Virus record (IMG/VR): IMGVR_UViG_2579778635_000006
Strand: one strand, 5' to 3'
DNA from: a virus
Lineage: Duplodnaviria > Heunggongvirae > Uroviricota > Caudoviricetes
DNA: 36,361 nucleotides
The notes below the pieces were generated by a model. It was not told the DNA's origin. It did not search any database and worked only from the letters and a program-made list of their open reading frames with translations. Numbering within the stretch: position 1 is the first letter of the stretch; every line of letters starts with the position of its first letter. The position numbers were made by a program, and so were the translations under genes. Positions 9,919-27,532 of this stretch are shown here, piece after piece.

Positions 9919-10254
9919 TTACGAATGATCATTCTGTTTAGTCTTCATGAGAAAATCCCGAATCTTTGCCAAGTTTGAATTTTCGGGGATTGAATCCATG
10001 TACGGATCACGCTCAAACACTAATTGCTCAGATTCAACGAAAGCCTGCCACTCTACTGGGTCTAGCTCAAATCCCATTGCTGTCATATCACTTTCATCTT
10101 CCCCCTCGATCCAGTGGACTAAATAAAACAATTCATCATCAGGAGAATCATCCTCACCATCAACAATATCAACATCGGTTACAGTGATACGTAGGGTGGG
10201 ATCGATTTTTGAGACATAAATTCCTAACTGTGGTATAGGGGGAATATTGTTCAT
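9919..10254 (-). CDS. Highly acidic small protein (111 aa), hypothetical; candidate DNA-mimic/anti-restriction or immunity-type protein
   Basis: ATG with AGGAG about 6 nt upstream on the minus strand. About 26 D/E against about 7 K/R by eye. Opposite orientation to the flanking early genes, in a cos-proximal accessory region. Confidence 0.6.
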   Translation of the reverse strand: MNNIPPIPQLGIYVSKIDPTLRITVTDVDIVDGEDDSPDDELFYLVHWIEGEDESDMTAMGFELDPVEWQAFVESEQLVFERDPYMDSIPENSNLAKIRDFLMKTKQNDHS

Positions 10255-10633
10255 GGAAACTCCTTTTATTGGTGTTTGCTATTTGAATAAAAATACGCCA
10301 AACAGAGTGTTAACTGTGAATATGGAAAGAATCGTTGTAAGTACCCCGCTTAGGTGTCCCATTCTATTTTAGAGGTTCTCGTGCATATGGATTATGTTAT
10401 CTGAAAGTTAACTTCCGCTTCCCGTTCACAGCGAACATTCATCTTTGTAAACCCGTATGGTCCGTTTTTCAAGTGGCCATTCAGATACGGATTTTTACTT
10501 CTTTGACAGTGCATGACTATGCTGCATGAAATCGCATGATCGATTGAGGATCGTCTTTGCTCAGATCCGCCAGAACTGGCGGGCTTTTGCTCATGTCATG
10601 CATGTGCATGAAAACCACTGCATAAAGCGGGCA

Positions 10634-12182: not shown

Positions 12183-13208
12183 TTATAGTTTATAGTGTTC
12201 GAAAGTTATTGCTTCTTCATTGATCCAATAGTTGAGATCTTGTAACTTCTTCTGAAGTGGCATCAGTTCATTCCGAACAAATACCCGGCTGGCCTTCTCC
12301 ACATCCCCAAACCCTCCAACATTATTAGGCATAATCCCCATCATTTGCGGCGGCACGCGGTGCGCAGCCATCATGTCGTCGCGGCTGACATTTTTGATAT
12401 TCAGAAATTCATCCTTCGCCGCGACTTCTGATAACGGGATGATTTGAAGCCCGTCCTTTTTGCCGTTAGGCGAGTACATAAACAGATTGCGGAAGTTGCC
12501 TGGACCTTTGGCGCTTTTCATTGCGTTGCGGAGGTTGTTCACATCCTCCTGGTTCTGCGCGGCATCGGTCATGTACATGATGAAGCCTGCATGGCTGCCG
12601 TTGATGTAATACTTACGGCGGAACAGCGTGGCGGACTCGTTGAGCAGGGCTGACGGAATGGCAGAAAGATAGCCGGGCAGGCCGTAGATCTCCTGGTTAA
12701 TGTCCGGTTCCATCAGATGAAAAATGCTGCCTTTCGTGAACTGATACGGCTGGGTTGTCATACCGTATTGCACAAACCAGTAGGTATCCAGGTCTAACCC
12801 GCGTCGGGTGTATTTTGCCAGAGCAGGCTCAAGGGCGATAACTTCACCGAAGCGGTTCGTGCGTTTCTCCAGGTAGGAGTTACCAAATACCAGATAGTCC
12901 TGCACAAAACGTGAAAAAGCCTGCTGGCTGAGCAGCGGATGGGGGATGTAGGTACTGGTCAGAATGTTGCATTTCACCGCAATTGGTGAACTGTGATGCA
13001 CGGCGGCGCGGAAGGTGCGTGCCAGTCCGTCAAAGCTTACTGGCGGCTCATACCAGCGATCTGTCTGTACGCATTCCACATAGTCCAGTAGTTCGCGGCG
13101 GTCCAGAACAGGAACGGGATCACCGAAGCTGAATGCTTCGGCTGTAGTTTGACTTTTATGCTGGATCTGGTTCGTCGACGCAGCGCGGTTCTTCTTACTC
13201 TTTCCCAT
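12183..13208 (-). CDS. Q: Portal protein (P2 gpQ family)
   Basis: Strong similarity to P2 Q as recalled (WYEPPVS, KDEFLN, SRDD, AHRVPPQ, MGI). ATG start overlaps the stop of P by 1 nt. Confidence 0.95.
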   Translation of the reverse strand: MGKSKKNRAASTNQIQHKSQTTAEAFSFGDPVPVLDRRELLDYVECVQTDRWYEPPVSFDGLARTFRAAVHHSSPIAVKCNILTSTYIPHPLLSQQAFSRFVQDYLVFGNSYLEKRTNRFGEVIALEPALAKYTRRGLDLDTYWFVQYGMTTQPYQFTKGSIFHLMEPDINQEIYGLPGYLSAIPSALLNESATLFRRKYYINGSHAGFIMYMTDAAQNQEDVNNLRNAMKSAKGPGNFRNLFMYSPNGKKDGLQIIPLSEVAAKDEFLNIKNVSRDDMMAAHRVPPQMMGIMPNNVGGFGDVEKASRVFVRNELMPLQKKLQDLNYWINEEAITFEHYKL

Positions 13209-14974
13209 CAAAAAATCTCCACAATATTACTGGTATTGGCGGACTCGCCCTGCAGTGGTTCGTTAAACAGTGCGTGCATTGTTGCCCAGGCCAGATCGGC
13301 GTGGCTGGCTTCTTCGCTGCGGCTGGCTTCATAGGTCGGGCGGTTGCCGCTGGCGGTGGTGGCGCGACGGATTGCCATGAATGACTGCGCAATGTCGGTG
13401 TGCCCGGCGTCAAACTCCAGACGGCGGTGGCTGATAATGTCGTAGGCCTTGAGCACCAGGGCGTTTTTAACGTTGGGGTTGTAGACAAACTCCCGGACGG
13501 CAGGAAAGAATGCTTTCACGTTCTCGTAAACCCCGTGACCAACGCCGGTTGAGTCGATACCGATATAAGTCACGTTGTACTGTTCGGTCAGTTTTTTGAT
13601 GGCGTCAGCCTGAGCGCGGAAGTCCATCCCGCGCCACTGGTGACGCTCAAGAATGCGGAATTTACCGCCCGATACGGCTGGCGGTGCCACCACCACGCAT
13701 CCGGCACTGTCGCCGTTCTGAGTACCTTTTGCGGGGTCATAACCGATCCATACTTCGCGCCAGCCAAACGGGCGCAGGGCCAGTGCATGAAAGTCGGTCC
13801 AGATTTCCCAGCTGTCCACCATGCACGCCTGCAGTTCGCTGAGCGGGAACACGGACGCGAGATCGTCCACGAACTCGCACATCAGCAGGTTCTGGTATTC
13901 GTCCGGGCTGTACTCCATGCGCAGCTGGTCGAGGTCGAACAGGTTACAGCCGCCGCGCACCGCATCTTCCACGGTGACTATCTGGCGGTATTGCCCGTCT
14001 GCGCACAGCAGGCCGGGGGCCAGATTGCTGTGGGACAGGTCGATGTCCACCTTGTCAGCTTTGTTGCGTCCACGGTTGAACAGCGCACCGGACCAGAACG
14101 GATAAGCACTGTGGGTCAGGCTGGATGGCGTGGAAAAATAGGTTTGTCGCCATTTCTTGTGAATAGCCATCCCGGAAGCCACTTTGCGCAGCTCCTGGAA
14201 TTTCGGGATCCAGAAATATTCATCCAGATACAGGTTGCCGTGGTAACTCTGGGCCGTGCGGGCATTGGTTCCGAGGAAGTAAAGCGTGGCCCCATTAGGA
14301 AGCACCATCGGATCGCCTTTCAGCTCCACCTCCACTTCTTTGGCGAAGTCGATGATGTACTGCTTAAAGACGTGGGCCTGTGCCTTACTGGCGGAAAGGA
14401 AAATCTGGTTACGTCCGGTCAGCAGGGCGTCAATCAGGGCTTCACGGGCAAAATAGAAGGTCGCGCCGATCTGGCGTGACTTCAGCAGGTTGCGGATGCG
14501 GTTGGTTTTTCCGGCTTCCCACCAGTGGCGCTGGTAGTTGAACATGGAGGAATGAAAGATTTCTTCCAGCTTCTCAATCTGTTCATCGGTGAAAACATTC
14601 TTTTCCGGCTGACGGCGCGGGCCTTTGTTACGGTTGGCGACGTTAGGGTTTAAGTCGGCTTCGTTGCCGCCATTGTTAAACTTGCCGATCCGCGCGTGGC
14701 GTTCCGACTGGCGCGCCAGCAGGTCAATCTCTTTGAAATCTTTCCCTTCTTTGTGCTCCTTCATAATGAGCTGGCAGTAGCGTGCGGCGGTGGTGAGCTG
14801 CATCTGATCCAGCGGCCCATAGTCACCCCACTTGTCGCGTTTTTTCCAGCTGTGAACGGTTGCAACTTTCTCGCCCAGCATTTCAGCAATGCGGGCGACG
14901 CGGTATCCCTGAAAGTACAGCAGCATGGCCTGCCGACGGGGATCGAGATCTGCGGGTGTCAGTGTGGTGTTCAT
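13208..14974 (-). CDS. P: Terminase large (ATPase) subunit (P2 gpP family)
   Basis: 588-aa ORF upstream of and co-oriented with Q; classic P2 P-Q arrangement. Confidence 0.95.
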   Translation of the reverse strand: MNTTLTPADLDPRRQAMLLYFQGYRVARIAEMLGEKVATVHSWKKRDKWGDYGPLDQMQLTTAARYCQLIMKEHKEGKDFKEIDLLARQSERHARIGKFNNGGNEADLNPNVANRNKGPRRQPEKNVFTDEQIEKLEEIFHSSMFNYQRHWWEAGKTNRIRNLLKSRQIGATFYFAREALIDALLTGRNQIFLSASKAQAHVFKQYIIDFAKEVEVELKGDPMVLPNGATLYFLGTNARTAQSYHGNLYLDEYFWIPKFQELRKVASGMAIHKKWRQTYFSTPSSLTHSAYPFWSGALFNRGRNKADKVDIDLSHSNLAPGLLCADGQYRQIVTVEDAVRGGCNLFDLDQLRMEYSPDEYQNLLMCEFVDDLASVFPLSELQACMVDSWEIWTDFHALALRPFGWREVWIGYDPAKGTQNGDSAGCVVVAPPAVSGGKFRILERHQWRGMDFRAQADAIKKLTEQYNVTYIGIDSTGVGHGVYENVKAFFPAVREFVYNPNVKNALVLKAYDIISHRRLEFDAGHTDIAQSFMAIRRATTASGNRPTYEASRSEEASHADLAWATMHALFNEPLQGESANTSNIVEIF

Positions 14975-15020
14975 GGCACAAACCTACAGCCTTGAATGAA
15001 GGCTTTCCCCGCCTGCGGTT

Positions 15021-15038
15021 TGTGTGGTTGTCGGTACA
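15021..15038. promoter_or_regulatory. Ogr-type late promoter dyad TGT-N12-ACA in the divergent P/O intergenic region
   Basis: tgt-gtggttgtcggt-aca seen directly. The TGT-N12-ACA dyad is the activator site of P2/186 late promoters. Confidence 0.5.
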
Positions 15039-15116
15039 AATACCGCGCATTGTTTCACTGCCCCTATCACCGCAACCATAAGGCTCCAGTAAGTTTTTTC
15101 TAACGGAGCACGGCTC

Positions 15117-15950
15117 ATGACAGTGAAAGCAAAGCGTTTTCGCATCGGGGTGGAAGGTGCCACCACCGACGGACGCGAAATCCAGCGTGAATGGCTGGAA
15201 CAGATGGCAGCCAGCTACAACCCGGCGGTGTATACCGCGCTGATTAACCTTGAGCACATCAAGTCTTATCTGCCGGACAGCACCTTTAACCGCTACGGCA
15301 AGGTGACGGCGCTGTTTGCTGAAGAAATCAAGGAAGGTCCGCTGGCAGGCAAGATGGCGCTGTATGCCGACGTTGAGCCAACGGAGTCCCTGGTGGAACT
15401 GGTGAAAAAAGGCCAGAAATTATTCACCTCTATGGAAGTCAGCCCGAAGTTCGCTGATACGGGCAAAGCCTACCTGGTCGGCCTGGCTGCCACTGATGAC
15501 CCTGCCAGTCTGGGCACTGAAATGCTGACATTCAGCGCCAGTGCAGCCCATAACCCGCTGGCAAACCGCAAGCAGAATCCTGCCAATCTCTTTACCGCTG
15601 CAGAAGAAACGGTGATCGAACTGGAGGAAGTCCAGGACGACAAACCGTCCCTGTTTGCCCGCGTCACGGCGCTGTTCACCAAAAAAGAGCAGTCAGACGA
15701 TGCCCGGTTCTCTGATGTGCATAAGGCCGTGGAGCTGGTCGCCACTGAGCAGCAAGACCTGAGTGCGCGCACCGAAAAATCCCTGTCTGAACAGGAAGAA
15801 CGCTTGTCTGAGCTGGAGACAGCCCTGCAGGCACAGCTGACCGCCTTTGACGAACTGGTGGACAAGCTGAGCCATGAAGACAGCCGCCAGGACTACCGCC
15901 AGCGTGCAACAGGCGGTAACGCCCCCGCTGACACTCTGACCAATTGCTGA
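15117..15950 (+). CDS. O: Capsid scaffolding protein (P2 gpO family)
   Basis: 277-aa ORF divergent from P and preceding the major capsid gene. Confidence 0.9.
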   Translation: MTVKAKRFRIGVEGATTDGREIQREWLEQMAASYNPAVYTALINLEHIKSYLPDSTFNRYGKVTALFAEEIKEGPLAGKMALYADVEPTESLVELVKKGQKLFTSMEVSPKFADTGKAYLVGLAATDDPASLGTEMLTFSASAAHNPLANRKQNPANLFTAAEETVIELEEVQDDKPSLFARVTALFTKKEQSDDARFSDVHKAVELVATEQQDLSARTEKSLSEQEERLSELETALQAQLTAFDELVDKLSHEDSRQDYRQRATGGNAPADTLTNC

Positions 15951-15966
15951 TGGAGCACAAAACCTG

Positions 15967-17025
15967 ATGAAGAAGAATACCCGCTTTGCTTTTAACGCTT
16001 ACCTGCAGCAGCTGGCGCGTCTGAACGGTGTGGCAGTTGAAGAACTGTCCAGCAAGTTCACCGTGGAGCCGTCTGTGCAGCAGACGCTGGAAGACCAGAT
16101 CCAGCAGTCCGCCGCTTTCCTGACGCTGATTAATGTCACCCCGGTGACTGAACAGTCCGGTCAACTGCTGGGGTTGGGTGTTGGCAGCACCATTGCCGGA
16201 ACCACTGATACCACCGCAAAAGAGCGTGAGCCTGTCGATCCGACGCTGATGGTCGATGTGGAATATAAATGCGAGCAGACCAACTTTGATACGGTGCTGA
16301 CCTACGCGAAGCTGGACCTGTGGGCGAAGTTTCAGGATTTCCAGGTGCGTATCCGTGACGCCATCGTGAAACGTCAGGCACTGGACCGCATCATGATCGG
16401 CTTTAACGGCGTGAAGCGTGCGAAAACCTCCAACCGTAGCGAAAACCCGTTGCTGCAGGATGTGAACAAAGGCTGGCTGCAGAAAATCCGTGAGGATGCA
16501 CCGGATCACGTCATGGGCAGCACCACCACGGGCGGTAAAACCACACCGGGCGCAGTGAAAGTCGGCAAAGGTGGCGAATATGCCAACCTGGACGCTGTAG
16601 TGATGGATGCGGTCAATGAGCTTATCGACGTGGTCTACCAGGACGATGACGATCTGGTGGTGATTTGCGGTCGTGAACTGCTGTCTGACAAGTATTTCCC
16701 GCTGGTCAACAAAGAGCAGGAAAACAGTGAAAAACTGGCTGCCGATATGATCATCAGCCAGAAACGCATGGGTGGCCTGCAGGCCGTGCGTGCGCCATTC
16801 TTCCCGCCGAATGCGCTGCTGATCACCCGTCTGGATAACCTGTCCATCTACTGGCAGGAAGACACCCGCCGCCGTTCAGTTATCGACAACCCGAAACGTG
16901 ACCGGATTGAAAACTTTGAATCCGTTAACGAAGCCTATGTGGTTGAGGACTACCGCTGCGCAGCACTGGTGGAAAACATCCAGATTGGCGATTTTAGCGC
17001 CGCTGCAGCAGAAGCCGGAGCGTAA
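15967..17025 (+). CDS. N: Major capsid protein (P2 gpN family)
   Basis: 352 aa, strong similarity to P2 N as recalled (TRFAFNAYL, FTVEPSV, KEQENSE, LSIYW). Confidence 0.95.
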   Translation: MKKNTRFAFNAYLQQLARLNGVAVEELSSKFTVEPSVQQTLEDQIQQSAAFLTLINVTPVTEQSGQLLGLGVGSTIAGTTDTTAKEREPVDPTLMVDVEYKCEQTNFDTVLTYAKLDLWAKFQDFQVRIRDAIVKRQALDRIMIGFNGVKRAKTSNRSENPLLQDVNKGWLQKIREDAPDHVMGSTTTGGKTTPGAVKVGKGGEYANLDAVVMDAVNELIDVVYQDDDDLVVICGRELLSDKYFPLVNKEQENSEKLAADMIISQKRMGGLQAVRAPFFPPNALLITRLDNLSIYWQEDTRRRSVIDNPKRDRIENFESVNEAYVVEDYRCAALVENIQIGDFSAAAAEAGA

Positions 17026-17028
17026 CCC

Positions 17029-17679
17029 ATGAGCCTGAGTCCCGCACGGCAGCATCGCCTGCGCGTTCAGGCTGAACAGGCCGCTCGTGAGGGTGGCAGT
17101 GTTCGCCATGCGTCGGGCTATGACCTGATGCTGCTGCAACTGGCGGAAGACCGCCGCCGTCTCAAGGGCGTTCAGTCCACGGTCAAAAAAGCGGAAATCA
17201 AAGTGGAGCTGCTGCCGAAGTACGCCGCCTGGGCGGAGGGTGTCCTGGCTGGCGGAGGCGCCCAACAGGATGACGTGCTGATGTACGTGATGCTGTGGCG
17301 CATTGATGCCGGAGATTATGCCGGGGCGCTGGAGATTGGGCGTCATGCTCTGCGTCATGGCTGGGTGATGCCGCTGGGTAACCGCAACGTGCAGACCGTG
17401 CTGGCAGAGGAAATGGCAGACGCGGCACAGAGCGCAATGCTTGCCACTACCGGCTTTGATGTCGATCTGTTGCTGCAGACGCTGGAGCTGACAGATGGTC
17501 TGGATATGCCGGACCAGTCACGGGCGCGTCTGCATAAAGCGATTGGCGCTGTCCTGAGTGAAAGCAACCCGGCTTCCGCCCTTAATCATCTCAACCATGC
17601 GTTACAGCTCGATCCCCGCAGTGGCGTGAAAAAAGACAAACAGCAGCTGGAGCGCAGACTGCGCAATGACAGCCGCTGA
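17029..17679 (+). CDS. M: Terminase small/endonuclease subunit (P2 gpM family)
   Basis: 216-aa ORF directly after N. Confidence 0.9.
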   Translation: MSLSPARQHRLRVQAEQAAREGGSVRHASGYDLMLLQLAEDRRRLKGVQSTVKKAEIKVELLPKYAAWAEGVLAGGGAQQDDVLMYVMLWRIDAGDYAGALEIGRHALRHGWVMPLGNRNVQTVLAEEMADAAQSAMLATTGFDVDLLLQTLELTDGLDMPDQSRARLHKAIGAVLSESNPASALNHLNHALQLDPRSGVKKDKQQLERRLRNDSR

Positions 17680-17774
17680 CAGAACGTGCCCCCGCGCACG
17701 GGCGGCACGGAGTGGCGAAAGGCACTGCCACATCAAAACCCCGTCCACCGCCCTCTATTTCAGGAGAAAGCAGC

Positions 17775-18239
17775 ATGAAGTTTGTTGCGCCAGAACAGGC
17801 ACCGGAACAGGCGGAAATCATCAGAAACACGCCGTTCTGGCCTGATGTGGACCTGTCGGAGTTTCGCAGTGTCATGCGCACTGACGGCACGGTGACGCAG
17901 CCGCGTTTAAAGCAGGTTGCGCTGTCGGCAATTTCGGAGGTCAACGCAGAGCTGTATGAGTTTCGCAGACGCCAGCAGATGCTGGGATATGCCTCGCTGG
18001 CAGAGGTTCCGGCGGAGCAGCTGGACGGCAAAAGTGAGCGCATTCAGCACTATTTCAACGCGGTTTACTGCTGGGCACGCGCCATGCTCAACGAACGATA
18101 CCAGGACTATGACGCCACGGCATCCGGTGTGAAGCGAGGCGAAGAACTGGCAGAAGCCAGCGGTGATTTGTGGCGTGACGCCCGCTGGGCCATCAGCCGG
18201 GTGCAGGATGCGCCGCACTGCACAGTGGAGCTTATCTGA
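17775..18239 (+). CDS. L: Head completion/stabilisation protein (P2 gpL family)
   Basis: ATG at 17775 with AGGAG upstream. The product contains NTPFWPDVDLSEFR, like P2 L (RFWPDVSLADFR). The upstream in-frame GTG at 17712 lacks a ribosome-binding site. Confidence 0.85.
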   Translation: MKFVAPEQAPEQAEIIRNTPFWPDVDLSEFRSVMRTDGTVTQPRLKQVALSAISEVNAELYEFRRRQQMLGYASLAEVPAEQLDGKSERIQHYFNAVYCWARAMLNERYQDYDATASGVKRGEELAEASGDLWRDARWAISRVQDAPHCTVELI

Positions 18240-18442
18240 TGAAAGTGCGTGCGCATCAGTATGACACGGTGGACGCGCTTTGCTGGCGTCATTACGGGCG
18301 CACGCAGGGTGTCACGGAGCAGGTACTGAAGGCAAATCCGGGGCTTGCCGAATACGGCCCCTTTTTACCTCACGGGCTGCAGGTGGAGCTGCCGGACATT
18401 CCGACCACCACCACCGTGCAGACCGTCCAGCTATGGGACTGA
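18239..18442 (+). CDS. X: Tail protein X (P2 gpX family)
   Basis: 67 aa. Start overlaps the L stop (TGATG). Confidence 0.85.
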   Translation: MKVRAHQYDTVDALCWRHYGRTQGVTEQVLKANPGLAEYGPFLPHGLQVELPDIPTTTTVQTVQLWD

Positions 18443-18445
18443 GTT

Positions 18446-18661
18446 ATGACGCTTGAGCGAATCAGCGCCTTTATCACGTATTGCATCGCCGTCGTGCTGG
18501 CCTGGCTGGGCGATTTGTCCATCAAGGATGCCTCAACGCTGGGCGGCCTGATGATTGGTGTGCTGATGCTGGCTATCAACTGGTACTACAAACACAAAGC
18601 CTACCAGCTTCTGCGCGACGGGCAGATCTCGCGGGAGGACTATGAATCCATCAATCGTTAA
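18446..18661 (+). CDS. Y: Holin (P2 gpY position; small membrane protein)
   Basis: 71 aa with hydrophobic segments and a charged C-terminus, immediately upstream of the endolysin. Confidence 0.75.
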   Translation: MTLERISAFITYCIAVVLAWLGDLSIKDASTLGGLMIGVLMLAINWYYKHKAYQLLRDGQISREDYESINR

Positions 18662-19154
18662 ACGCTGCCTTGTCGGGGCCGTGCTGGCTATTGCTGCCAC
18701 GCTGCCGGGTTTTCAGCAGCTTCACACCTCCGTGGAGGGGCTGAAACTGATTGCCGATTACGAAGGTTGTCGTCTGCAGCCGTATCAGTGCAGCGCGGGT
18801 GTCTGGACCGACGGCATTGGTAATACGTCAGGCGTCATTCCCGGCAAAACCATTACGGAGCGACAGGCAGCAGAAGGGCTGATCTCCAACGTGCTGCGTG
18901 TGGAGCGGGCGCTGGAAAGGTGTGTGAAGCAACAGCCGCCGCAGAAGGTGTATGACGCTGCGGTGTCGTTTGCCTTCAACGTGGGAACGGGCAATGCCTG
19001 CAGTTCCACGCTGGTGAAATTACTCAATCAGCGGCGCTGGGCAGATGCGTGCCGACAGTTGCCGCGCTGGGTTTATGTGAAAGGTGTTTTTAATCAGGGG
19101 CTGGATAACCGCCGTGCGCGGGAGATGGCCTGGTGTTTACAGGGAGCAAACTGA
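18642..19154 (+). CDS. K: Endolysin, T4-lysozyme-like (GH24) with an N-terminal SAR (signal-anchor-release) segment
   Basis: N-terminal hydrophobic stretch CLVGAVLAIAATLPGF followed by a lysozyme motif region (EGLKLIADYEGCRLQPYQC...GVWTDGIGNT). Confidence 0.85.
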   Translation: MNPSIVKRCLVGAVLAIAATLPGFQQLHTSVEGLKLIADYEGCRLQPYQCSAGVWTDGIGNTSGVIPGKTITERQAAEGLISNVLRVERALERCVKQQPPQKVYDAAVSFAFNVGTGNACSSTLVKLLNQRRWADACRQLPRWVYVKGVFNQGLDNRRAREMAWCLQGAN

Positions 19155-19155
19155 A

Positions 19156-19533
19156 ATGAAAAAGAAATTAATCAGCGGACTGTTTCTGATGTTATGGATG
19201 GCGCTGTTAATCGCAGCAATGGTGTATCCGCAGGGGATTTTTCCGGTACTGGCAGCGTCCGGCGTTTGGGTAGCCTGTTTGCTGACATGGGCGGTAATTC
19301 CGGTAGCACTGGCTGCGTTAATTAAGAACGGCCCGCTCTGGCAGGAGTTGAGGGCATCTTTGCTAAAGACCATTACCCGAAAAGAAAACGTATTTATCAG
19401 CTGGGTGATGCGATTGCTGATTGTCGTAAGTTTCGCCTGGACGGGGTGGGCTATTACCCTGGTCTTTTATCTGCTGACCGTTATTGCCTTCTGGATGATC
19501 CGTAATCAGATTGCGCAACAGGTAGCAGCATGA
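19156..19533 (+). CDS. lysA: Lysis accessory membrane protein (LysA-like)
   Basis: ATG at 19156 with AGGGAG upstream. Multi-pass hydrophobic product. Confidence 0.7.
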   Translation: MKKKLISGLFLMLWMALLIAAMVYPQGIFPVLAASGVWVACLLTWAVIPVALAALIKNGPLWQELRASLLKTITRKENVFISWVMRLLIVVSFAWTGWAITLVFYLLTVIAFWMIRNQIAQQVAA

Positions 19534-19958
19534 ACCGGTTGCTGCTGGTTGTGTTGGCGTTATTACTGGCGGCGCTGGGCTGGCAGACGTGGCGGCTGGC
19601 TGATGCCAGCCAGACCATCAGCACGCAGGCAGACGAGCTTCGGAGCAAAAGCCAGGCACTGGCAAAGAGCAACAGCCAGCTTATCAGCCTGTCCATTCTG
19701 ACTGAAACCAATAACCGGGAGCAGGCGCGGCTCTATGCCGAAGCAGAACAGACCAGTGTACTGCTGAGACAACGACTACACCGGATTGAGGAACTGAAAC
19801 GTGAGAACGAGGATTTACGCCGCTGGGCTGATACTCCTTTGCCTGCTTACATTATCCGGCTGCGGGAACGCCCCACACTCACCGGAGGTGCAGCTTACCG
19901 TCAGTGGTTGTCCGCGAGTGACGCCGTGTCGGCTGGGGCAGGCAGCGCCGCGCACTAA
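19530..19958 (+). CDS. lysB: i-spanin (Rz-like, LysB)
   Basis: N-terminal transmembrane segment followed by a coiled-coil-like region. Start overlaps the lysA stop. Confidence 0.75.
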   Translation: MNRLLLVVLALLLAALGWQTWRLADASQTISTQADELRSKSQALAKSNSQLISLSILTETNNREQARLYAEAEQTSVLLRQRLHRIEELKRENEDLRRWADTPLPAYIIRLRERPTLTGGAAYRQWLSASDAVSAGAGSAAH

Positions 19959-20091
19959 CGGTGACCTGAACGCGTTGCTGGATGAAACGGAGGCCGCCTG
20001 GGCGGTCTGTGCAGACAAAGTGGACATGATTATTGCGTGTCAGGAGCGAAACAGTGAACAAACCACAATCCCTGCGCCACGCCCTCAATAA
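19801..20091 (+). CDS. lysC: o-spanin lipoprotein (Rz1-like, LysC), embedded in the +1 frame of lysB
   Basis: Signal peptide with lipobox LTLSGC. GTG start at 19801 with GAGGA upstream. Proline-rich mature region. Confidence 0.5.
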   Translation: MRTRIYAAGLILLCLLTLSGCGNAPHSPEVQLTVSGCPRVTPCRLGQAAPRTNGDLNALLDETEAAWAVCADKVDMIIACQERNSEQTTIPAPRPQ

Positions 20092-20485
20092 AGCGGTGCC
20101 TTATGTCCGCAATAACCCGGACAAACTGCATCTGTTTGTGGATAACGGTTCGCTGGTTGCCACGGGGGCCAGCTCCATGTCATGGGAGTACCGCTATACC
20201 CTGAACGTGGTGATAGAGGATTTCAGCGGCGACCAGAATCTGCTGATGGCCCCGGTTTTACTGTGGCTTCGGGATAACCAGCCCGATGCCATCAATAACC
20301 CGGCGTTACGGGAAAAGCTATTCACCTTTGAGGTGGATATTTTGCGCAACGATGTCTGTGATATCAGCCTTAACCTGCAACTGACGGAACGTGTGCTGGT
20401 CAGTACTGACGGCAGTGTGTCGAGCGTTGAAGCTGTAGCAGAACCCGATGAACCTGAAGAAATGTGGACGGTGAAACGTGGCTGA
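20054..20485 (+). CDS. R: Tail completion protein (P2 gpR family)
   Basis: Likely GTG start at 20054 with AGGAG 7 nt upstream. The product aligns with P2 R (KPQSLRHAL...LFVDNGSL). An upstream in-frame ATG exists at 20033. Confidence 0.8.
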   Translation: MNKPQSLRHALNKAVPYVRNNPDKLHLFVDNGSLVATGASSMSWEYRYTLNVVIEDFSGDQNLLMAPVLLWLRDNQPDAINNPALREKLFTFEVDILRNDVCDISLNLQLTERVLVSTDGSVSSVEAVAEPDEPEEMWTVKRG

Positions 20486-20924
20486 ACTGCAGAAGGTGGA
20501 CGACTGGCTGAGTGCCTTGCTGGCGAATCTGGAACCAGCCAAGAGAAGCAGCATGATGCGCCAGCTGGCGCAGGAACTGCGCCGGACACAGCAGCAGAAT
20601 ATCAGGATGCAGCGCAATCCAGATGGCAGCAGTTATGAACCGCGCAGGGTAACAGCACGCAGTAAAAAAGGCCGTATCAAACGGCAGATGTTTACAAAAC
20701 TTCGCACCACAAAATACCTGAAAACCGCCGCCAGCGAGGACTCTGCCAGCGTGCAGTTTGAAGGTAAGGTGCAGCGCATTGCCCGCGTCCACCATTATGG
20801 CCTGCGTGATCGCGTCAGCCGCAAAGGACCGGAGGTCCGTTACGCAGAGCGTCGCCTTCTGGGCGTAAATGATGATGTTGAGGCAATGACCCGCGACATG
20901 ATTCTGCAATGGTTGGCGGGGTGA
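20478..20924 (+). CDS. S: Tail completion protein (P2 gpS family)
   Basis: 148-aa ORF overlapping the R stop; GTG start. Confidence 0.85.
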   Translation: MAELQKVDDWLSALLANLEPAKRSSMMRQLAQELRRTQQQNIRMQRNPDGSSYEPRRVTARSKKGRIKRQMFTKLRTTKYLKTAASEDSASVQFEGKVQRIARVHHYGLRDRVSRKGPEVRYAERRLLGVNDDVEAMTRDMILQWLAG

Positions 20925-20928
20925 TTTT

Positions 20929-20946
20929 TGTATCAGCACTGATACA
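20929..20946 (+). promoter_or_regulatory. Ogr-type late promoter dyad TGT-N12-ACA upstream of V (inside the palindrome ttgtatcag-ca-ctgatacaa)
   Basis: Perfect 9-bp-arm palindrome seen directly between S and V. It contains TGT-N12-ACA at the position of the P2 V-operon late promoter. Confidence 0.6.
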
Positions 20947-20992
20947 AGTTGCAGCACTGCCGCCTTTCTTCCCCTGATGGCAACCTTTCCCT

Positions 20993-21571
20993 ATGAACGC
21001 ACAATTAACCGAAATCATGCGCCTTATCACCAATCTGATCCGCACTGGTGTAGTCACCGAAGTGGACCGGGAACACTGGCTTTGTCGGGTGAAAACGGGC
21101 GACCTTGAAACCAACTGGATTAACTGGCTGACGCTGCGCGCGGGCAAATCGCGCACCTGGTGGAAACCGTCTGTGGGTGAGCAGGTTGTGCTGTTCAGCC
21201 TTGGCGGCAATCTGGAAACCGCGTTTGCCCTGCCTGCGGTCTACTCAAACCAGTTTCCGCCACCTTCAGGCTCTGAGGACGGCAACGTGACGGAATACCC
21301 GGACGGCGGCTGGTTTGAATACGAACCCGCCACCGGGCGCTGGTATGTCAGGGGCATCAAATCAATGGTCATTGAGGCCGCTGACAACATCACCATGAAA
21401 ACCAGTGAGTTTGTACTGGAGGCTGACCGCACGCGCATTAACAGCGAAGTGGTGATCAATGGTGGCGTTACCCAGGGCGGCGGAGCGATGAGTTCTAACG
21501 GGATCGTGGTTGATGCGCATCAGCATACTGGCGTCCTGAAAGGCGGCGATACAACCGGAGGCCCGGTATGA
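20993..21571 (+). CDS. V: Baseplate spike (P2 gpV family)
   Basis: N-terminus resembles P2 V (LIRTGVV, RAGKSRTWW, PSVGEQV). Confidence 0.9.
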   Translation: MNAQLTEIMRLITNLIRTGVVTEVDREHWLCRVKTGDLETNWINWLTLRAGKSRTWWKPSVGEQVVLFSLGGNLETAFALPAVYSNQFPPPSGSEDGNVTEYPDGGWFEYEPATGRWYVRGIKSMVIEAADNITMKTSEFVLEADRTRINSEVVINGGVTQGGGAMSSNGIVVDAHQHTGVLKGGDTTGGPV

Positions 21572-21927
21572 CGCTTTATATCGGGATGAACAATACCAGC
21601 GGTAAAGCCATTACTGATATTGACCATCTGCGTCAGTCGGTGCGGGACATTCTACTGACACCGCAGGGTAGCCGCATTGCCCGTCGTGAATATGGTTCCC
21701 TGCTGTCGACACTGATAGCCCAGCCACAAAATCCGGCATTACGCCTGCAGGTCATGTCGGCAGTGTATGTGGCGCTGAGTCGCTGGGAGCCACGGCTGAC
21801 GCTGGATTCCATCACCATTAAAAGCAATTTTGACGGTTCAATGGTGGTGGGGCTGACCGGGCGGCGTAATAACGGTGTGCCTGTTTCCCTTTCCGTATCA
21901 ACAGGAGCAGAGAATGGCAGTGATTGA
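21568..21927 (+). CDS. W: Baseplate wedge protein (P2 gpW / gp25-like)
   Basis: 119 aa, translationally coupled to V. Confidence 0.9.
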   Translation: MTLYIGMNNTSGKAITDIDHLRQSVRDILLTPQGSRIARREYGSLLSTLIAQPQNPALRLQVMSAVYVALSRWEPRLTLDSITIKSNFDGSMVVGLTGRRNNGVPVSLSVSTGAENGSD

Positions 21928-22822
21928 CCTTTCGCAGTTGCCTGCGCCGCAGATTGTCGATGTGCCGGACTTTGAGACGCTGCTTGCCGAACGCAGGGCC
22001 GAATTTGTTGCGCTTCATCCGAAAGATGAGCAGGAAGCCGTGATCCGCACGCTGGAACTGGAATCTGAACCCGTCACCAAATTGCTGCAGGAGAACGCTT
22101 ACCGTGAGTTGCTTCTGCGCCAGCGCATTAACGAAGCCGCGCAGGCTGTGATGGTGGCTTACGCGATGGGCGGCGATCTTGACCAGCTCGCTGCCAACTA
22201 CAACGTGAAACGCCTGACGGTGACGCCTGCTGATAATGACGCTGTGCCACCCGTTGCGGCTGTGATGGAAAGCGATGAAGCGTTACGCCTGCGTGTGCCC
22301 GCAGCCTTTGAAGGGCTTTCTGTTGCGGGGCCAACTGCCGCTTATGAATTTCATGCCCGAAGCGCCGACGGTCGGGTGGCGGATGCCAGTGCAACCAGTC
22401 CGGCACCTGCAGAGGTGGTACTGACTGTCCTGAGTCGTGAAGGCGACGGAACAGCAGAAAAAGACTTGCTGGATGTGGTGGAGAAAGCCCTGAACAGTGA
22501 GAACGTCCGCCCGGTGGCTGACCGTCTTACGGTTCGCAGCGCAGAAATCATTCCGTATCGCGTGGAAGCCACCATTTTTCTCTATCCGGGACCGGAAGCA
22601 GAGCCGGTAATGGCAGCGGCAAAAGCCAGTCTGCAGAAGTACATTGCCAGCCAGACGAGGCTTGGTCGGGATATTCGCCGTAGCGCCATCTTTGCTGCTC
22701 TGCATGTTGAGGGTGTTCAACGTGTGGAACTGGCTTCTCCGCTGGCGGATGTGGTCCTGAACAAAACACAGGCGGCATCATGTACGCAGTGGAGCGTAAC
22801 CAACGGAGGAGCGGATGAATAG
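21914..22822 (+). CDS. J: Baseplate protein (P2 gpJ family)
   Basis: ATG at 21914 with AGGAG upstream. N-terminus MAVIDLSQLPAPQIV resembles P2 J. Confidence 0.9.
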   Translation: MAVIDLSQLPAPQIVDVPDFETLLAERRAEFVALHPKDEQEAVIRTLELESEPVTKLLQENAYRELLLRQRINEAAQAVMVAYAMGGDLDQLAANYNVKRLTVTPADNDAVPPVAAVMESDEALRLRVPAAFEGLSVAGPTAAYEFHARSADGRVADASATSPAPAEVVLTVLSREGDGTAEKDLLDVVEKALNSENVRPVADRLTVRSAEIIPYRVEATIFLYPGPEAEPVMAAAKASLQKYIASQTRLGRDIRRSAIFAALHVEGVQRVELASPLADVVLNKTQAASCTQWSVTNGGADE

Positions 22823-23420
22823 TCTGCTGCCACCGGGTTCAACTTCACTGGAGCGCCGACTGGCGCAAACCTGTAGCGGGATTTCTGATTTGCAGGTGCC
22901 GCTGCGTGACTTGTGGAATCCGGCTACCTGTCCGGTCAGTTTCCTGCCTTATCTCGCCTGGGCGTTCTCTGTGGATCGCTGGGACGAGGGCTGGACAGAA
23001 AGCGTCAAGCGCCAGGTGGTGAAGGATGCTTTTTATATTCATCAGCATAAAGGGACCACCAGTGCCGTGCGGCGGGTGGTGGAGCCGTTCGGCTTTCTGA
23101 TCCGCATTATTGAGTGGTGGCAGACCGGAGAGGCACCGGGCACGTTTCGTCTGGATATCGGCGTGCAGGACCAGGGCATCACTGAAGATACCTATCTGGA
23201 ACTTGAGCGACTGATAAGCGATGCCAAACCATGTAGCCGTCACATGAGCGGCATGTCCATCAACCTGCAGACCAGCGGCCCGCATTGGGTGGGAGCCGCC
23301 AGCTATCTTGGCGAAGAAATCACGATCTATCCGTATATCAACGAAACAATTATTTCCGGCGGCACCGCGCATGAAGGCGGGGCGGTCCATGTTATTGACA
23401 CAATGAGAGTGAATCCATGA
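22815..23420 (+). CDS. I: Baseplate/tail-fibre attachment protein (P2 gpI family)
   Basis: 201 aa, overlapping the J stop and preceding H. Confidence 0.9.
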   Translation: MNSLLPPGSTSLERRLAQTCSGISDLQVPLRDLWNPATCPVSFLPYLAWAFSVDRWDEGWTESVKRQVVKDAFYIHQHKGTTSAVRRVVEPFGFLIRIIEWWQTGEAPGTFRLDIGVQDQGITEDTYLELERLISDAKPCSRHMSGMSINLQTSGPHWVGAASYLGEEITIYPYINETIISGGTAHEGGAVHVIDTMRVNP

Positions 23421-25840
23421 GCACAAAATTTTATACCCTGCTGACGGATATTGGCGCGGCGAAACTTGCCAGCGCCGCCGCGCTTGGTGTGCCGCTAAAA
23501 ATTACCCATATGGCGGTGGGCGATGGCGGCGGAGCATTGCCGACGCCGGACGCAAAGCAGACTGCACTGGTAAATGAGAAACGCCGGGCTGCGCTGAATA
23601 TGCTCTATATCGACCCGCAGAACAGCAGCCAGATTATTGCTGAACAGGTGATCCCTGAAAACGAGGGCGGTTGGTGGATACGTGAAGTGGGCCTGTTTGA
23701 TGAGTCAGGGGCATTGATTGCCGTGGGGAACTGCCCGGAAAGCTATAAACCGCAACTGGCTGAAGGCAGCGGGCGCACCCAGACCGTGCGCATGGTGCTG
23801 ATTACCAGCAGTACGGACAATATCACCCTGAAAATCGACCCTGCTGTAGTACTGGCAACTCGCAAGTATGTGGATGACAAAATATCAGAGCACGAACAGT
23901 CACGACGTCACCCGGACGCCTCGCTGACCGCAAAAGGTTTTACTCAGTTAAGCAGTGCGACCAACAGTGAATCCGAAATACTGGCCGCAACACCGAAGGC
24001 TGTGAAGGCTGCATATGATCTTGCAGCAGGTAAAGCATCCGCCAGTCACACACACCCGTGGAATCAGATAACAGGTGTACCTGCAGCCTCGCTGACGGTA
24101 AAAGGCACTGTGCAACTCAGCAGCGCCACTAACAGCACATCAGAAACGCAGGCCGCCACTCCAAAGGCAGTGAAGGCGGCATATGACCTTGCAGCAGGTA
24201 AGGCACCTGTCAGTCACACACACCCGTGGAATCAGATAACGGATGTGCCTGCAGCTTCACTGACGGTAAAAGGCACCGTGCAACTCAGCAGTGCCACTAA
24301 CAGCACGTCAGAAACGCAGGCTGCCACACCAAAGGCAGTGAAGGCGGCATATGACCTTGCAGCAGGTAAGGCACCTGTCAGTCACACGCACCCGTGGAGC
24401 CAGATAACGGATGTGCCTGCAGCTTCACTGACGGTAAAAGGCACCGTGCAACTCAGCAGCGCCACTAACAGCACGTCAGAAACGCAGGCTGCCACACCAA
24501 AGGCAGTGAAGGCGGCATATGACCTTGCAGCAGGTAAGGCACCTGTCAGTCACACGCACCCGTGGAGCCAGATAACGGATGTGCCTGCAGCTTCACTGAC
24601 GGTAAAAGGCACCGTGCAACTCAGCAGCGCCACTAACAGCACGTCAGAAACGCAGGCTGCCACACCAAAGGCAGTGAAGGCGGCATATGACCTTGCAGCA
24701 GGTAAGGCACCTGTCAGTCACACGCACCCGTGGAGCCAGATAACGGATGTGCCTGCAGCTTCACTGACGGTAAAAGGCACCGTGCAACTCAGCAGCGCCA
24801 CTAACAGCACGTCAGAAACGCAGGCTGCCACACCAAAGGCAGTGAAGGCGGCATATGACCTTGCAGCAGGTAAGGCACCTGTCAGTCACACGCATCCGTG
24901 GAGCCAGATAACGGATGTGCCTGCAGCTTCACTGACGGTAAAAGGTACCGTGCAACTCAGCAGCGCCACTAACAGCACGTCAGAAACGCAGGCTGCCACA
25001 CCAAAAGCTGTGAAGGCTGTATATGACCTTGCCAATGGAAAACAACCTGCCGACGCCACACTGACCGCACTGGCAGGCCTTGCCACTGCGGCAGACAAAC
25101 TTCCGTATTTTACGGGGAATGATACAGCCAGCCTGACAACCCTGACTAACGTTGGACGGAATATTCTGGATAAAGCAAGTACACAGGCGGTTATTCAATA
25201 TCTTGGTCTGAGCGATGCAAGTGGATACGTTGGACGCTGGCTGAATACCCGGGTTTTCACCTCATCAGGTACGTACACCCCGACGCCAGGAACAAAACGG
25301 ATCAGGGTCACAATAACGGGCGGCGGTGGCGGAGGGGGCGGCTGCAAGGCTACATCCAATAATGAAACGTTTTTCGGCGCTGGCGGTGGGGCCGGTGGAA
25401 CAATAATTTCAATAATGACCCCAACACAGAATAGTTATCCAGTCACTATCGGCGCAGGTGGGGCCGGTGGTGTTAGTGCGACGAACGGCACCAGTGGCGG
25501 GAATAGCGTATTCGCATCGTTAATTGCTCCTGGTGGCGCAGGTGGCGGGAAAGTGGGAGTTACAAACACAAACGGCGGTAACGGAGGTGTGCCGAGTACT
25601 GGCGATATCCGCATCACTGGTGGAAATGGAGGCGACGGTCAGTCCGGAAATATCGGCGTCAGCGGTGAAGGCGGAACATCGCACTGGGGCGGCGGTGGAC
25701 GCGCAGGCGCTGGCGGTGGTGTTAGTGGTAAGGCATATGGTTCAGGTGGCGGTGGCGCATACGATGCCGGTTATAGCGGAACCAGTATGACAGGCGGGAA
25801 AGGTGCTGCTGGGATTTGTATTATCGAGGAGTTTGCATAA
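23417..25840 (+). CDS. H: Tail fibre protein (P2 gpH family): conserved N-terminus, internal 56-aa tandem repeats, glycine-rich C-terminal domain
   Basis: N-terminal ~160 aa are P2 H-like (MSTKFYTLLTDIGAAKLASAAALG...). The middle holds about 6.6 tandem 56-aa repeats. The C-terminus is Gly-rich (GGGGGGGG, GAGGAGG, NGGNGG). Confidence 0.9.
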   Translation: MSTKFYTLLTDIGAAKLASAAALGVPLKITHMAVGDGGGALPTPDAKQTALVNEKRRAALNMLYIDPQNSSQIIAEQVIPENEGGWWIREVGLFDESGALIAVGNCPESYKPQLAEGSGRTQTVRMVLITSSTDNITLKIDPAVVLATRKYVDDKISEHEQSRRHPDASLTAKGFTQLSSATNSESEILAATPKAVKAAYDLAAGKASASHTHPWNQITGVPAASLTVKGTVQLSSATNSTSETQAATPKAVKAAYDLAAGKAPVSHTHPWNQITDVPAASLTVKGTVQLSSATNSTSETQAATPKAVKAAYDLAAGKAPVSHTHPWSQITDVPAASLTVKGTVQLSSATNSTSETQAATPKAVKAAYDLAAGKAPVSHTHPWSQITDVPAASLTVKGTVQLSSATNSTSETQAATPKAVKAAYDLAAGKAPVSHTHPWSQITDVPAASLTVKGTVQLSSATNSTSETQAATPKAVKAAYDLAAGKAPVSHTHPWSQITDVPAASLTVKGTVQLSSATNSTSETQAATPKAVKAVYDLANGKQPADATLTALAGLATAADKLPYFTGNDTASLTTLTNVGRNILDKASTQAVIQYLGLSDASGYVGRWLNTRVFTSSGTYTPTPGTKRIRVTITGGGGGGGGCKATSNNETFFGAGGGAGGTIISIMTPTQNSYPVTIGAGGAGGVSATNGTSGGNSVFASLIAPGGAGGGKVGVTNTNGGNGGVPSTGDIRITGGNGGDGQSGNIGVSGEGGTSHWGGGGRAGAGGGVSGKAYGSGGGGAYDAGYSGTSMTGGKGAAGICIIEEFA
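23913..25030 (+). repeat. In-frame tandem repeat array, 168-bp unit, about 6.6 copies, inside H
   Basis: Unit starts (ctgcagc) at 24081, 24249, 24417, 24585, 24753 and 24921, with a diverged first copy near 23913. Copies 3-6 look nucleotide-identical by eye. Confidence 0.9.
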
Positions 25841-26253
25841 TGAATGCGTCATATGCAGTTATTGAAAATGGGATGGTTGTGAATGTCATTGTCTGGGATG
25901 GCGAGGCTGAATTCACAGTGCCGGATAATCAGCAGCTCATTGATATTTCTGATATCAGTGAGCATCCAGGAATTGGCTGGGGGTATTCAGACGGGGTATT
26001 TACTGCGCCGCTCCCTCCGGAACGTTCTCATAATGAACTGGTAGCTGACGCTGAACAGAAAAAACAGTCGCTGATAGACGCAGCAATGGCCAATATCAGC
26101 GTGATTCAGTTAAAGCTGCAGGCCGGGCGCAAACTGACGCAAGAAGAAACTACCCGACTTAACGTTGTGCTGGATTATATCGAGGCTGTGACGGCAACAG
26201 ATACCAGCACCGCACCTGATATCATTTGGCCTGTTTTCCCTGCAAGCAGATAA
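25840..26253 (+). CDS. G: Tail fibre assembly chaperone (P2 gpG / Tfa family)
   Basis: ATG at 25840 overlaps the H stop (TAATG), with GAGGA upstream. It follows the tail fibre gene. Confidence 0.85.
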   Translation: MNASYAVIENGMVVNVIVWDGEAEFTVPDNQQLIDISDISEHPGIGWGYSDGVFTAPLPPERSHNELVADAEQKKQSLIDAAMANISVIQLKLQAGRKLTQEETTRLNVVLDYIEAVTATDTSTAPDIIWPVFPASR

Positions 26254-26265
26254 ATACCGTCATTT

Positions 26266-26283
26266 TGTGTGAATAACGGTACA
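26266..26283 (+). promoter_or_regulatory. Ogr-type late promoter dyad TGT-N12-ACA upstream of FI
   Basis: tgt-gtgaataacggt-aca seen directly, about 75 nt upstream of the FI start. Confidence 0.55.
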
Positions 26284-26359
26284 ACTGCGCTTAGCTGCTT
26301 GTCAGACACAATCACTTCAACATAGGGCGAAGCCTAATCCAATCAGGAGGTTCGCCACT

Positions 26360-27532
26360 ATGGCTCAGGATTACCACCACGGAGTGCGCGTTGTTGAAGT
26401 CAACGAAGGCACTCGATCCATTACTACGGTGAGCACCGCCATCGTGGGCATGGTCTGCACGGGCGATGATGCCGATGCAAAAATGTTCCCTCTTAATAAA
26501 CCCGTGCTGATCACTGATGTGCTTACTGCCAGCGGTAAAGCGGGTGAGTCAGGTACGCTGGCCCGTTCGCTGGATGCCATCGCTGACCAGGCAAAACCCG
26601 TGACCGTTGTTGTGCGTGTGCCGCAGGGTGAAACGGAAGAAGAAACCACGACCAATATCATCGGCGCAGTGACTGCTGAAGGTAAAAAAACTGGTATGAA
26701 AGCCCTGTTATCTGCCCAGTCACAGCTCGGTGTTAAACCGCGCATTCTCGGCGTGCCGGGGCACGATAACAAAGCCGTTGCTACTGAGTTGCTGGGCGTG
26801 GCGCAAAGCCTGCGTGGGTTTGCTTACCTGTCAGCGTATGGTTGCAAGACGGTGCAGGAAGCAATCACTTACCGTAAAAACTTCAGCCAGCGTGAAGGGA
26901 TGCTGATCTGGCCCGACTTTACTGGCTGGGACACGGTGCTGAATGCCGAAGCAACGGCATATGCCACCGCCCGTGCGCTTGGTCTGCGCGCCAAAATTGA
27001 TGAGCAGACCGGATGGCACAAAAGCCTGTCCAACGTGGGCGTGAACGGTGTCACCGGAATTTCTGCTGATGTATTCTGGGATCTGCAGGACCCGGCAACT
27101 GATGCGGGACTGCTTAACCAGAACGATGTTACCACACTTATCCGCAAAGACGGCTTTCGCTTCTGGGGTTCCCGCTGTCTGAGTGATGACCCACTCTTTG
27201 CCTTTGAAAACTACACCCGCACGGCGCAGGTGCTGATGGACACGATGGCAGAAGCGCCAATGTGGGCGGTCGACAAACCGCTGAATCCGTCGCTGGCCCG
27301 CGACATTATCGAAGGTATCCGCGCCAAAATGCGCAGCCTGATCAGTCAGGGCTATCTCATTGGTGGCGATTGCTGGCTGGATGAGTCGGTGAACGACAAA
27401 GACACTCTGAAAGCTGGAAAACTCACCATCGACTACGACTACACACCAGTGCCGCCACTTGAAAACCTGATGCTGCGTCAGCGCATCACCGATCAGTACC
27501 TGGTGAATTTCGCCAGCCAGGTCAGCGCGTAA
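26360..27532 (+). CDS. FI: Contractile tail sheath protein (P2 gpFI family)
   Basis: 390 aa with AGGAGG upstream; first gene of the F operon. Confidence 0.95.

Follow-up and report, generated by a model that had tools for sequence, protein, structure and literature searches.

In P2, Ogr recruits RNA polymerase through the alpha subunit, as is known from the phage and from the rpoA109 host mutant. In the GenBank records of P2 (AF063097) and 186 (U32222), the activator sites are centred 54.5-58.5 bp from the mapped transcription starts. The P2 record gives a single 'activator binding site; pO, pP promoters' at 3057-3087, with the starts 55.5 bp to each side, and the 186 record gives a single B-protein site for 'pV and p12'; in Smp131 (PMC3931495) one dyad is likewise assigned to both promoters. 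A common site between the divergent P and O operons is already annotated in the P2 and 186 records and is not new. The P2 record also places the start of V transcription on the first base of the V coding sequence.

The window, that is, the whole stretch of 36,361 nt analysed here, is a P2-family (Fels-2-like) Klebsiella/Enterobacteriaceae prophage. Its gene order and Pfam matches, together with 96% DNA identity to Klebsiella P2-like phages, identify the late region as that of the P2 family, and its four late operons, P-Q, O-to-S, V-to-G and FI-to-D, are the same four in the same order as in P2. Gene P (13208-14974, minus strand, ATG at 14972-14974) encodes the terminase large subunit, with Pfam terminase domains and 63% identity to P2 gpP from residue 3. 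The other three operons lie on the plus strand and begin with the capsid scaffold gene O (15117-15950; Pfam Phage_GPO, 5e-113), the baseplate spike gene V (20993-21571; Phage_base_V and Apex) and the tail sheath gene FI (26360-27532; Phage_sheath_1 and related domains).

Pattern search recovered the exact TGT-N12-ACA dyads that had been reported at 15021-15038, 20929-20946 and 26266-26283. The first, TGTGTGGTTGTCGGTACA (centre 15029.5), lies in the 142 bp gap between the divergent P and O genes and would be common to P_P (leftward) and P_O (rightward). The second, TGTATCAGCACTGATACA (centre 20937.5), lies in the 68 bp S/V gap and is the candidate activator site of P_V; the third, TGTGTGAATAACGGTACA (centre 26274.5), lies in the 106 bp G/FI gap and is that of P_F. 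As also described from the sequence, the V dyad is embedded in a perfect inverted repeat (20928-20947) whose 9-bp arms, TTGTATCAG and CTGATACAA (20928-20936 and 20939-20947), are separated by a 2-nt gap.

Hundreds of related prophages carry an exact dyad at a constant distance from the start codons of V, FI, O and P, even amid unrelated surrounding DNA. For V, it is found 54.5-57.5 bp from the ATG in 31/31 unique upstream sequences of close gpV relatives, which between them hold 17 different dyad sequences in flanks that are partly unrelated. For FI, the distance is 83.5-85.5 bp in every one of 45 unique sequences taken upstream of gpFI relatives (11 dyad variants), and these upstream regions are of two unrelated sequence types, both with the dyad at that distance. 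A fixed-position dyad is present upstream of O in 20/20 unique sequences from close relatives; the close gpO relatives in IMG/VR are too similar to inform, and the P/O comparison comes from a species-dereplicated genome scan. There, 50 species-level prophages have one exact dyad each, whose distance from the P ATG is 55.5 bp in every case, while about 25 of the 80 scanned P/O loci belong to other lineages that have TTGTGCCA-type half-sites, some N11-spaced, and no exact N12 dyad. Among the relatives' dyads the TGT and ACA are invariant, the N12 spacer is free to vary, and part of the V and F flanking sequence is not homologous. These counts are not independent events, because the relatives share a phylogeny, a concern that is eased by the mosaic V and F flanks. 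The comparison suggests for this lineage an activator-site consensus of TTGT-R-Y-S-R...ACAA with an exact N12 spacer, one common P/O site and fixed start-codon distances.

The geometry agrees with that of P2 and 186. From dyad centre to start codon, the distance at V is 55.5 bp in the window against 55.5-56.5 bp in P2, at FI 85.5 bp against 82.5 bp in P2, and at O 87.5 bp against 87.5-95.5 bp in 186 and P2. The original prediction that these are P2-type late-promoter sites is supported by these distances as well as by the gene order, Pfam matches and 96% identity. All four promoters have a -10-like hexamer, with A at -11 and T at -7, in register with a start at the dyad centre + 55.5. For P_P this is TAGGTT (14981-14986, minus strand), which puts the predicted start at 14974, the A of the P ATG; in this region G-13, T-12, A-11, T-7 and C-1 are invariant in 45/45 unique sequences. 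P_O has a -35-like TTGTTT (15050-15055, plus strand), whose TTGT is invariant in all 46 sequences at -35 to -32 relative to the dyad centre + 55.5, and a -10-like AACCAT (15074-15079, plus strand), where GCAAMCATARGG is conserved, with A-11 in 46/46. From the sequence the P_O start is predicted at about 15085-15088 rather than to the base. The P_V hexamer, CAACCT (20981-20986, plus strand), predicts a start at 20993, the A of the V ATG, giving a leaderless mRNA as annotated for P2 V; relative to the ATG, 17 non-redundant V promoters have A-11 in 14 cases and T-7 in 12. At P_F, CAACAT (26318-26323, plus strand) predicts a start at about 26330, and both of the unrelated F upstream types have xAACAT at -12 to -7 and an A at the dyad centre + 55.5. 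A search for a consensus sigma-70 promoter (-35/-10 pair) gave no match in any of the three late regions. Core promoters this weak, lacking a consensus -35/-10 pair, argue for activator dependence.

Whether such dyads mean anything at all has to be considered, since TGT-N12-ACA is a low-information pattern. Across the window the bare pattern is not enriched, with nine matches against 9.07 expected, and a further exact match at 14963-14980 is apparently meaningless, as would be expected of functionless chance matches. The signal for these sites is in their placement, however, and not in the frequency of the pattern. The three late intergenic regions together are expected to hold 0.066 matches and have one each (P ~8e-6), an arrangement that none of 3000 within-region shuffles reproduced. 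The extended form TTGT-N12-ACAA is specific to the late sites, its three matches in 36 kb (0.67 expected) being exactly these. Chance would also not keep the position constant in relatives, including those with unrelated flanks; on these comparative data it appears effectively refuted, and we give it a negligible probability. The motifs might instead be real and act without Ogr, either through host CRP or, at the S/V junction, as a terminator or RNA hairpin. Within the F site, TGTGA-N6-GTACA matches the CRP core at 8/10 positions, and the RNA of the V palindrome is predicted to fold at -9.8 kcal/mol (z = -2.0). However, a CRP core is spaced as TGT-N10-ACA rather than N12, and none of the other F and V variants has the CRP-like inner bases; a U-tract is lacking at the V hairpin, a terminator scan made no call there, and the extended palindrome is absent from most V variants. 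Ogr-independent action of either kind is therefore very improbable.

A further question is whether the P/O dyad serves P_O only, P_P having an activator site of its own. Two exact dyads do occur in the P/O area, and a half-site-like TTGT at 15050, 21 bp to the right of the P/O dyad centre, is conserved. The original prediction saw one clear dyad here and suggested a shared activator site. The dyad at 15021-15038 is the only TTGT-N12-ACAA in the gap; the prediction overlooked the fourth exact TGT-N12-ACA at 14963-14980, which covers P codons 1-4. This fourth dyad covers the P start codon and reaches downstream of it; ST512phi13.6 has lost it, as have most of the 50 P/O loci. It is probably a chance match, since it is not kept in relatives, and was rejected as a separate P_P site on account of the start codon overlap and the lack of conservation. 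A site built on the other candidate would be centred near 15059, at -26 of P_O. Moreover, the P/O dyad keeps an invariant 55.5 bp from the P ATG, with an invariant GTAnnnT in register, and in P2 and 186 a single site serves the two promoters. A separate P_P site thus seems unlikely, and the suggestion of one activator site common to P and O stands, the site being homologous in position to the single P2 and 186 sites.

The reported intact ogr gene is present at 33288-33506 (plus strand). It encodes 72 aa with a Pfam Ogr_Delta match (PF04606, 6.7e-22) and a C4 zinc finger, CX2CX22CX4C; an in-frame upstream ATG at 33270 is a possible alternative start. The protein aligns without gaps to P2 Ogr (51% identity) and 186 B (54%), with all four cysteines aligned. 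Upstream is a sigma-70-like promoter, TTTGCA-16-TATCAT (33223-33250, plus strand), at the position that the P2 and 186 records give for the ogr and B promoters. An identity of only 51-54% to the studied activators is a caveat in assigning the sites to this protein. The P2 and 186 sites are TGT-N12-CCA, or further off at P_V and p32, and the specificity may therefore differ in detail.

We consider it very likely that the three dyads are bound by the Ogr-family zinc-finger activator which the prophage itself encodes, and drive four P2-type late promoters. Ogr would be expressed downstream of gene D from a sigma-70 promoter of its own and would bind every dyad, the centre of which would precede the transcription start by about 55.5 bp. 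The bound protein would then recruit host sigma-70 RNA polymerase to promoters whose -10 (xAxxxT) is weak and whose -35 is slight or absent. The symmetric site at 15021-15038 would serve both P_P (leftward, ~14974) and P_O (rightward, ~15086), with starts some 111-112 bp apart, as in P2 and 186, whilst the P_V start would coincide with the V ATG (20993) or adjoin it, and that of P_F would lie at about 26330. It is from the sites and their surroundings that we infer Ogr binding, activation and the exact start sites, and with them the Ogr dependence of late transcription in the prophage.

The arrangement at P_P has a consequence for translation. The P ATG is always 55.5 bp from the dyad centre and follows a TAnnnT at -12 to -7, so that the terminase mRNA is predicted to be leaderless; in the 50 species-level prophages, GTAnnnT at -13 to -7 and CA at -1/+1 are invariant around the P start. 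We think it reasonably probable that in the Fels-2-like branch the gene P mRNA begins with its AUG, the 5' end being fixed by the common Ogr site. No Shine-Dalgarno sequence was seen at P or V, and aligned relatives have no G-rich block at -12 to -6. Downstream of the ATG, the P codons show protein-level conservation, with an excess of third-position change among relatives, and the alternative start at Met16 is Leu in many of them. To our knowledge, a leaderless mRNA for a terminase large subunit has not been described, and a literature search returned nothing usable on a leaderless P2 gene V or on Ogr with Fels-2. P2 (AF063097) has TAGCCT (3023-3028) as the homologous hexamer, 7 nt ahead of position 3016, where P transcription is mapped to start. 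If the prediction is right, transcription and translation of the packaging operon both take their start position from a single symmetric activator site, and leaderless genes stand at the head of two late operons out of four, those of V and P. It would be a modest, testable addition to the short list of leaderless mRNAs in enterobacterial phages.

These sites identify the prophage as one with a complete and probably inducible late circuit, which is useful for annotation and for predicting particle production, or support of P4-like satellites, by a Klebsiella-type prophage. The cleaner definition of the activator site could help late-promoter annotation across P2-like prophages, of which there are thousands.

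The circuit resembles that of P2 (AF063097) in the activator site about 55.5 bp upstream of the start (a predicted one in the window), in the P_P/P_O site held in common (P2 starts 111 bp apart), in the placing of the V start, predicted likewise, on the V ATG, and in the position of ogr downstream of D with its own promoter. It differs in that the P2 sites are TGT-N12-CCA at P/O and F and off-register at V, whereas the window sites are exact TGT-N12-ACA, and the P2 proteins are only ~44-63% identical to those of the window. Phage 186 (U32222), with its B-dependent p12, pV and pJ, likewise has a single B-protein site for p12 and pV, the left half of which, TTGTGTGG, is identical to that of the window P/O site, and shares a CI-type repressor and an activator gene with its own promoter; the right half of its sites, however, is CCA, and p12 has a leader and a distance of 78.5 bp between dyad centre and ATG. 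A 23-nt leader with a Shine-Dalgarno sequence is carried by P2 (gene P) and by 186, in contrast to the window, where the P ATG is at the predicted +1. The satellite P4 delta, PSP3 Pag and phiR73 delta proteins belong to the same Ogr_Delta zinc-finger family and recognise the TGT-N12-ACA consensus, and at PSP3 P_F an exact TGT-N12-ACA and the FI ATG are 82.5 bp apart, but the window has no P4-like satellite or sid-type promoter. The leaderless lambda cI (P_RM) and P2 V mRNAs offer the likeness for V in the window and, by inference, P: a -10 hexamer 7 nt before the A of the start codon and no Shine-Dalgarno sequence. The dyads thus form an ordinary, well-preserved example of a known late circuit, to which a leaderless P probably adds a small twist.

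The stretch from 13 to 33 kb shares 96% identity, over about 89% of its length, with P2-like phages of Klebsiella, among them 4LV2017 and the Kp48xx series, and the late genes lie in the full P2 order. Q (12183-13211) and P, the terminase large subunit gene (13208-14974), are on the minus strand; O, for the scaffold protein (15117-15950), is followed by N, M, L, X, the lysis genes, R and S, ending at 20924; V (20993-21571) by W, J, I, H and G, ending at 26253; and FI (26360-27532) by FII, E, T, U and D, ending at 33197, after which comes ogr (33288-33506). An integrase gene lies at the left end and a host permease gene past 33.7 kb. Its gpO shares 90% identity with the protein of Salmonella phage SEN8 (Felsduovirus) but only ~44% with P2 gpO, which identifies the element as a Fels-2-like member of the Peduoviridae. 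Two genes are likely defence cargo: one for an AAA_15/DUF2813 OLD-like ATPase between int and cI (1127-3115, minus strand), and one for a Schlafen AlbA_2 and HATPase_c_4 protein between the replication genes and Q (10734-12131), a slot occupied in 4LV2017 by a reverse transcriptase.

The original prediction placed Ogr-type TGT-N12-ACA dyads in the P/O divergent region (15021-15038) and upstream of V (20929-20946) and FI (26266-26283). All three are exact matches, and the V dyad does lie within a perfect palindrome, its 9-bp arms separated by 2 nt. The inventory had overlooked a fourth exact match, TGTGGTGTTCATGGCACA at 14963-14980, over the P start codon and codons 1-4. This match has one mismatch in SEN8, does not occur in ST512phi13.6 or in most of a further 50 prophages, and is probably a chance occurrence inside coding sequence. 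The bare pattern is not enriched in the window (9 matches versus 9.07 in shuffles), so the case for the dyads rests on where the matches fall. The three intergenic regions ahead of the P2-type late operons total 316 bp, in which 0.066 matches are expected, and each contains one (P ~8e-6, falling to ~2e-8 when the match must also lie in an 11-nt positional window), a pattern seen in 0 of 3000 within-region shuffles. With the flanking T and A added, TTGT-N12-ACAA has exactly three matches in 36 kb, the three late sites.

Conservation points the same way. Eighty IMG/VR loci were fetched for close relatives of each of gpO, gpV and gpFI, and every unique upstream sequence contains an exact dyad whose distance to the ATG is fixed: 20/20 for O (87.5 bp, four dyad variants), 31/31 for V (54.5-57.5 bp, 17 variants) and 45/45 for FI (83.5-85.5 bp, 11 variants). 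The TGT and ACA never vary, whereas the 12 inner bases do, giving a pooled half-site of T-TGT-R-Y-S-R. The S/V junction serves as a moron slot and there are two unrelated versions of the G/FI junction, so many V and FI upstream regions have in common only the dyad, where it sits and a -10-like block. The S/V junction is empty in the window (68 bp, 20925-20992); in relatives it carries orf30 (P2, locus L001 9439-10224), an FRG-domain protein gene (SEN8, L246 10986-11921) or a hypothetical protein gene (ST512phi13.6, L247 15094-15960). The distance from dyad to V ATG remains within 54.5-57.5 bp regardless of the cargo inserted upstream. The two FI upstream types (window 26254-26359; loci L166-L245) share only the dyad position, a AACATAGG block at -10 and an A at centre + 55.5. 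No terminator is found between G and the dyad in the window type; the other type, as in 4LV2017, has a GC hairpin and T-run there. A species-dereplicated scan of bacterial genomes with the gpO alignment gave 80 further prophages, of which 50 have one exact dyad, and only one, between P and O. The exact motif is absent from the P/O gap in P2-like lineages of Erwinia, Rahnella, Pectobacterium and some Yersinia (loci L302, L304-L310, L314-L319, L326-L331), where TTGTGCCA-type half-sites, some with N11 spacing to ACA, suggest that Ogr-family members have come to differ in site geometry or specificity.

The P/O, S/V and G/FI regions all lack a consensus sigma-70 promoter, as expected for activator-dependent promoters. 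When the dyads are used as anchors, weak core promoters emerge, each with a -10-like hexamer that carries A-11 and T-7 and is placed as a start at centre + 55.5 would require: TAGGTT for P_P (14981-14986, minus strand), AACCAT for P_O (15074-15079; predicted start ~15085-15088), CAACCT for P_V (20981-20986) and CAACAT for P_F (26318-26323; predicted start ~26330). P_O also has TTGTTTCA at 15050-15057, with TTGT invariant at -35 to -32 (46/46 sequences); TTGTTTCA resembles a partial -35 hexamer, yet also an Ogr half-site.

A spacing of exactly 55.5 bp separates the dyad centre from the P ATG both in the window and in each of the 50 related prophages, and in the same 50 the O ATG distance varies from 81.5 to 100.5 bp. 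Counting from the A of the P start codon, G-13, T-12, A-11, T-7 and C-1 are invariant in 45/45 unique sequences and GAAA at -33 to -30 almost so; the ATG lies 7 nt downstream of an invariant TAnnnT hexamer (window 14972-14986, minus strand; loci L252-L306), and no Shine-Dalgarno block precedes it in the 45. In P2 the mapped P start (3016) follows the homologous hexamer, TAGCCT (3023-3028), by 7 nt, and this spacing applied to the window puts +1 on the A of the ATG, 14974. A leaderless P mRNA, as also predicted for V, is thus rather favoured for this lineage, in contrast to P2 and 186, where P has a 23-nt leader (with GAGG in P2). On protein comparison the ATG at 14974 is the real P start, because gpP aligns with P2 gpP from residue 3, codons 2-15 show protein-level conservation with an excess of third-position change, and Met16 is Leu in many relatives. 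Since the 15 codons upstream of Met16 are conserved as protein and Met16 itself is not conserved, the gpP start in the deposited 4LV2017 annotation (L002 13949-15667), at the Met16 equivalent (window 14926 versus 14974), is probably 48 nt too short.

Position and conservation together exclude the reading of the dyads as chance matches, and individual sites fit other functions poorly. The F site contains TGTGA-N6-GTACA, as a CRP site might, but these inner bases vary among relatives and the spacing does not suit CRP, so this identity is rejected. The V palindrome folds as RNA at -9.8 kcal/mol, but it has no U-tract and the extended palindrome is missing in most V variants; a terminator or hairpin is likewise rejected. 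A separate activator site for P_P is unlikely: the candidate at 14963-14980 covers P codons and is mostly missing in relatives, the 55.5-bp distance and the hexamer in register are invariant, and P2 and 186 use a single site. The late-promoter reading of the dyads is supported by position, conservation, geometry and the activator gene.

In P2, 186 and P4 the -55 dyad is bound by proteins of the Ogr family, which act through the alpha subunit to activate sigma-70 RNA polymerase. The window's ogr is intact, as predicted: its 72-aa product, equal in length to Ogr and B, aligns gap-free with P2 Ogr (51% identity) and 186 B (54%), matches Pfam Ogr_Delta (6.7e-22) and keeps the zinc-finger spacing CX2CX22CX4C. 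A sigma-70-like promoter, TTTGCA-16-TATCAT (33223-33250), lies between D and ogr, the same place as the activator-gene promoters of P2 and 186. By analogy, we infer that Ogr, expressed from this promoter, would bind the three sites and switch on four Ogr-dependent promoters, the symmetric site centred at 15029.5 serving both P_P and P_O. The ogr promoter is flanked by direct repeats AAGTTTGCAAAA (33220-33231) and AATTTAGCAAAA (33258-33269), spaced 38 bp from each other, which may be CI operators: in the 186 record two CI sites are annotated as repressing pB, and the prophage encodes a 186-type CI (3136-3726).

The arrangement closely follows mapped systems. For the divergent pair, the P2 record (AF063097) has one 'activator binding site; pO, pP promoters' (3057-3087), whose dyad centre, 3071.5, lies 55.5 bp from both the P start (3016) and the O start (3127). 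In the same record the pV site is at 10239-10266 with a start at 10308, also the first base of the V CDS, and the pF site at 17555-17583 with starts at 17626-17628. The distance from dyad centre to ATG is 55.5 bp for V (55.5-56.5 in P2), 85.5 bp for FI (82.5 in P2, 81.5 in 186) and 87.5 bp for O (95.5 in P2, 87.5 in 186). The predicted P_P and P_O starts would be ~111-112 bp apart, like those of the divergent promoters of P2 (111 bp) and 186 (112 bp). The suggestion of a shared P/O site was correct, and such sharing is already annotated knowledge: the 186 record (U32222) has a single B-protein site (3798-3817) for 'pV and p12' and another for pJ, and in Smp131 one P/O dyad was assumed to be common to both promoters (PMC3931495). 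The dyads are thus a new example of a well-known type of regulatory site, the observation being confirmed and its interpretation supported, and all that is slightly new is the leaderless terminase mRNA predicted for this lineage.
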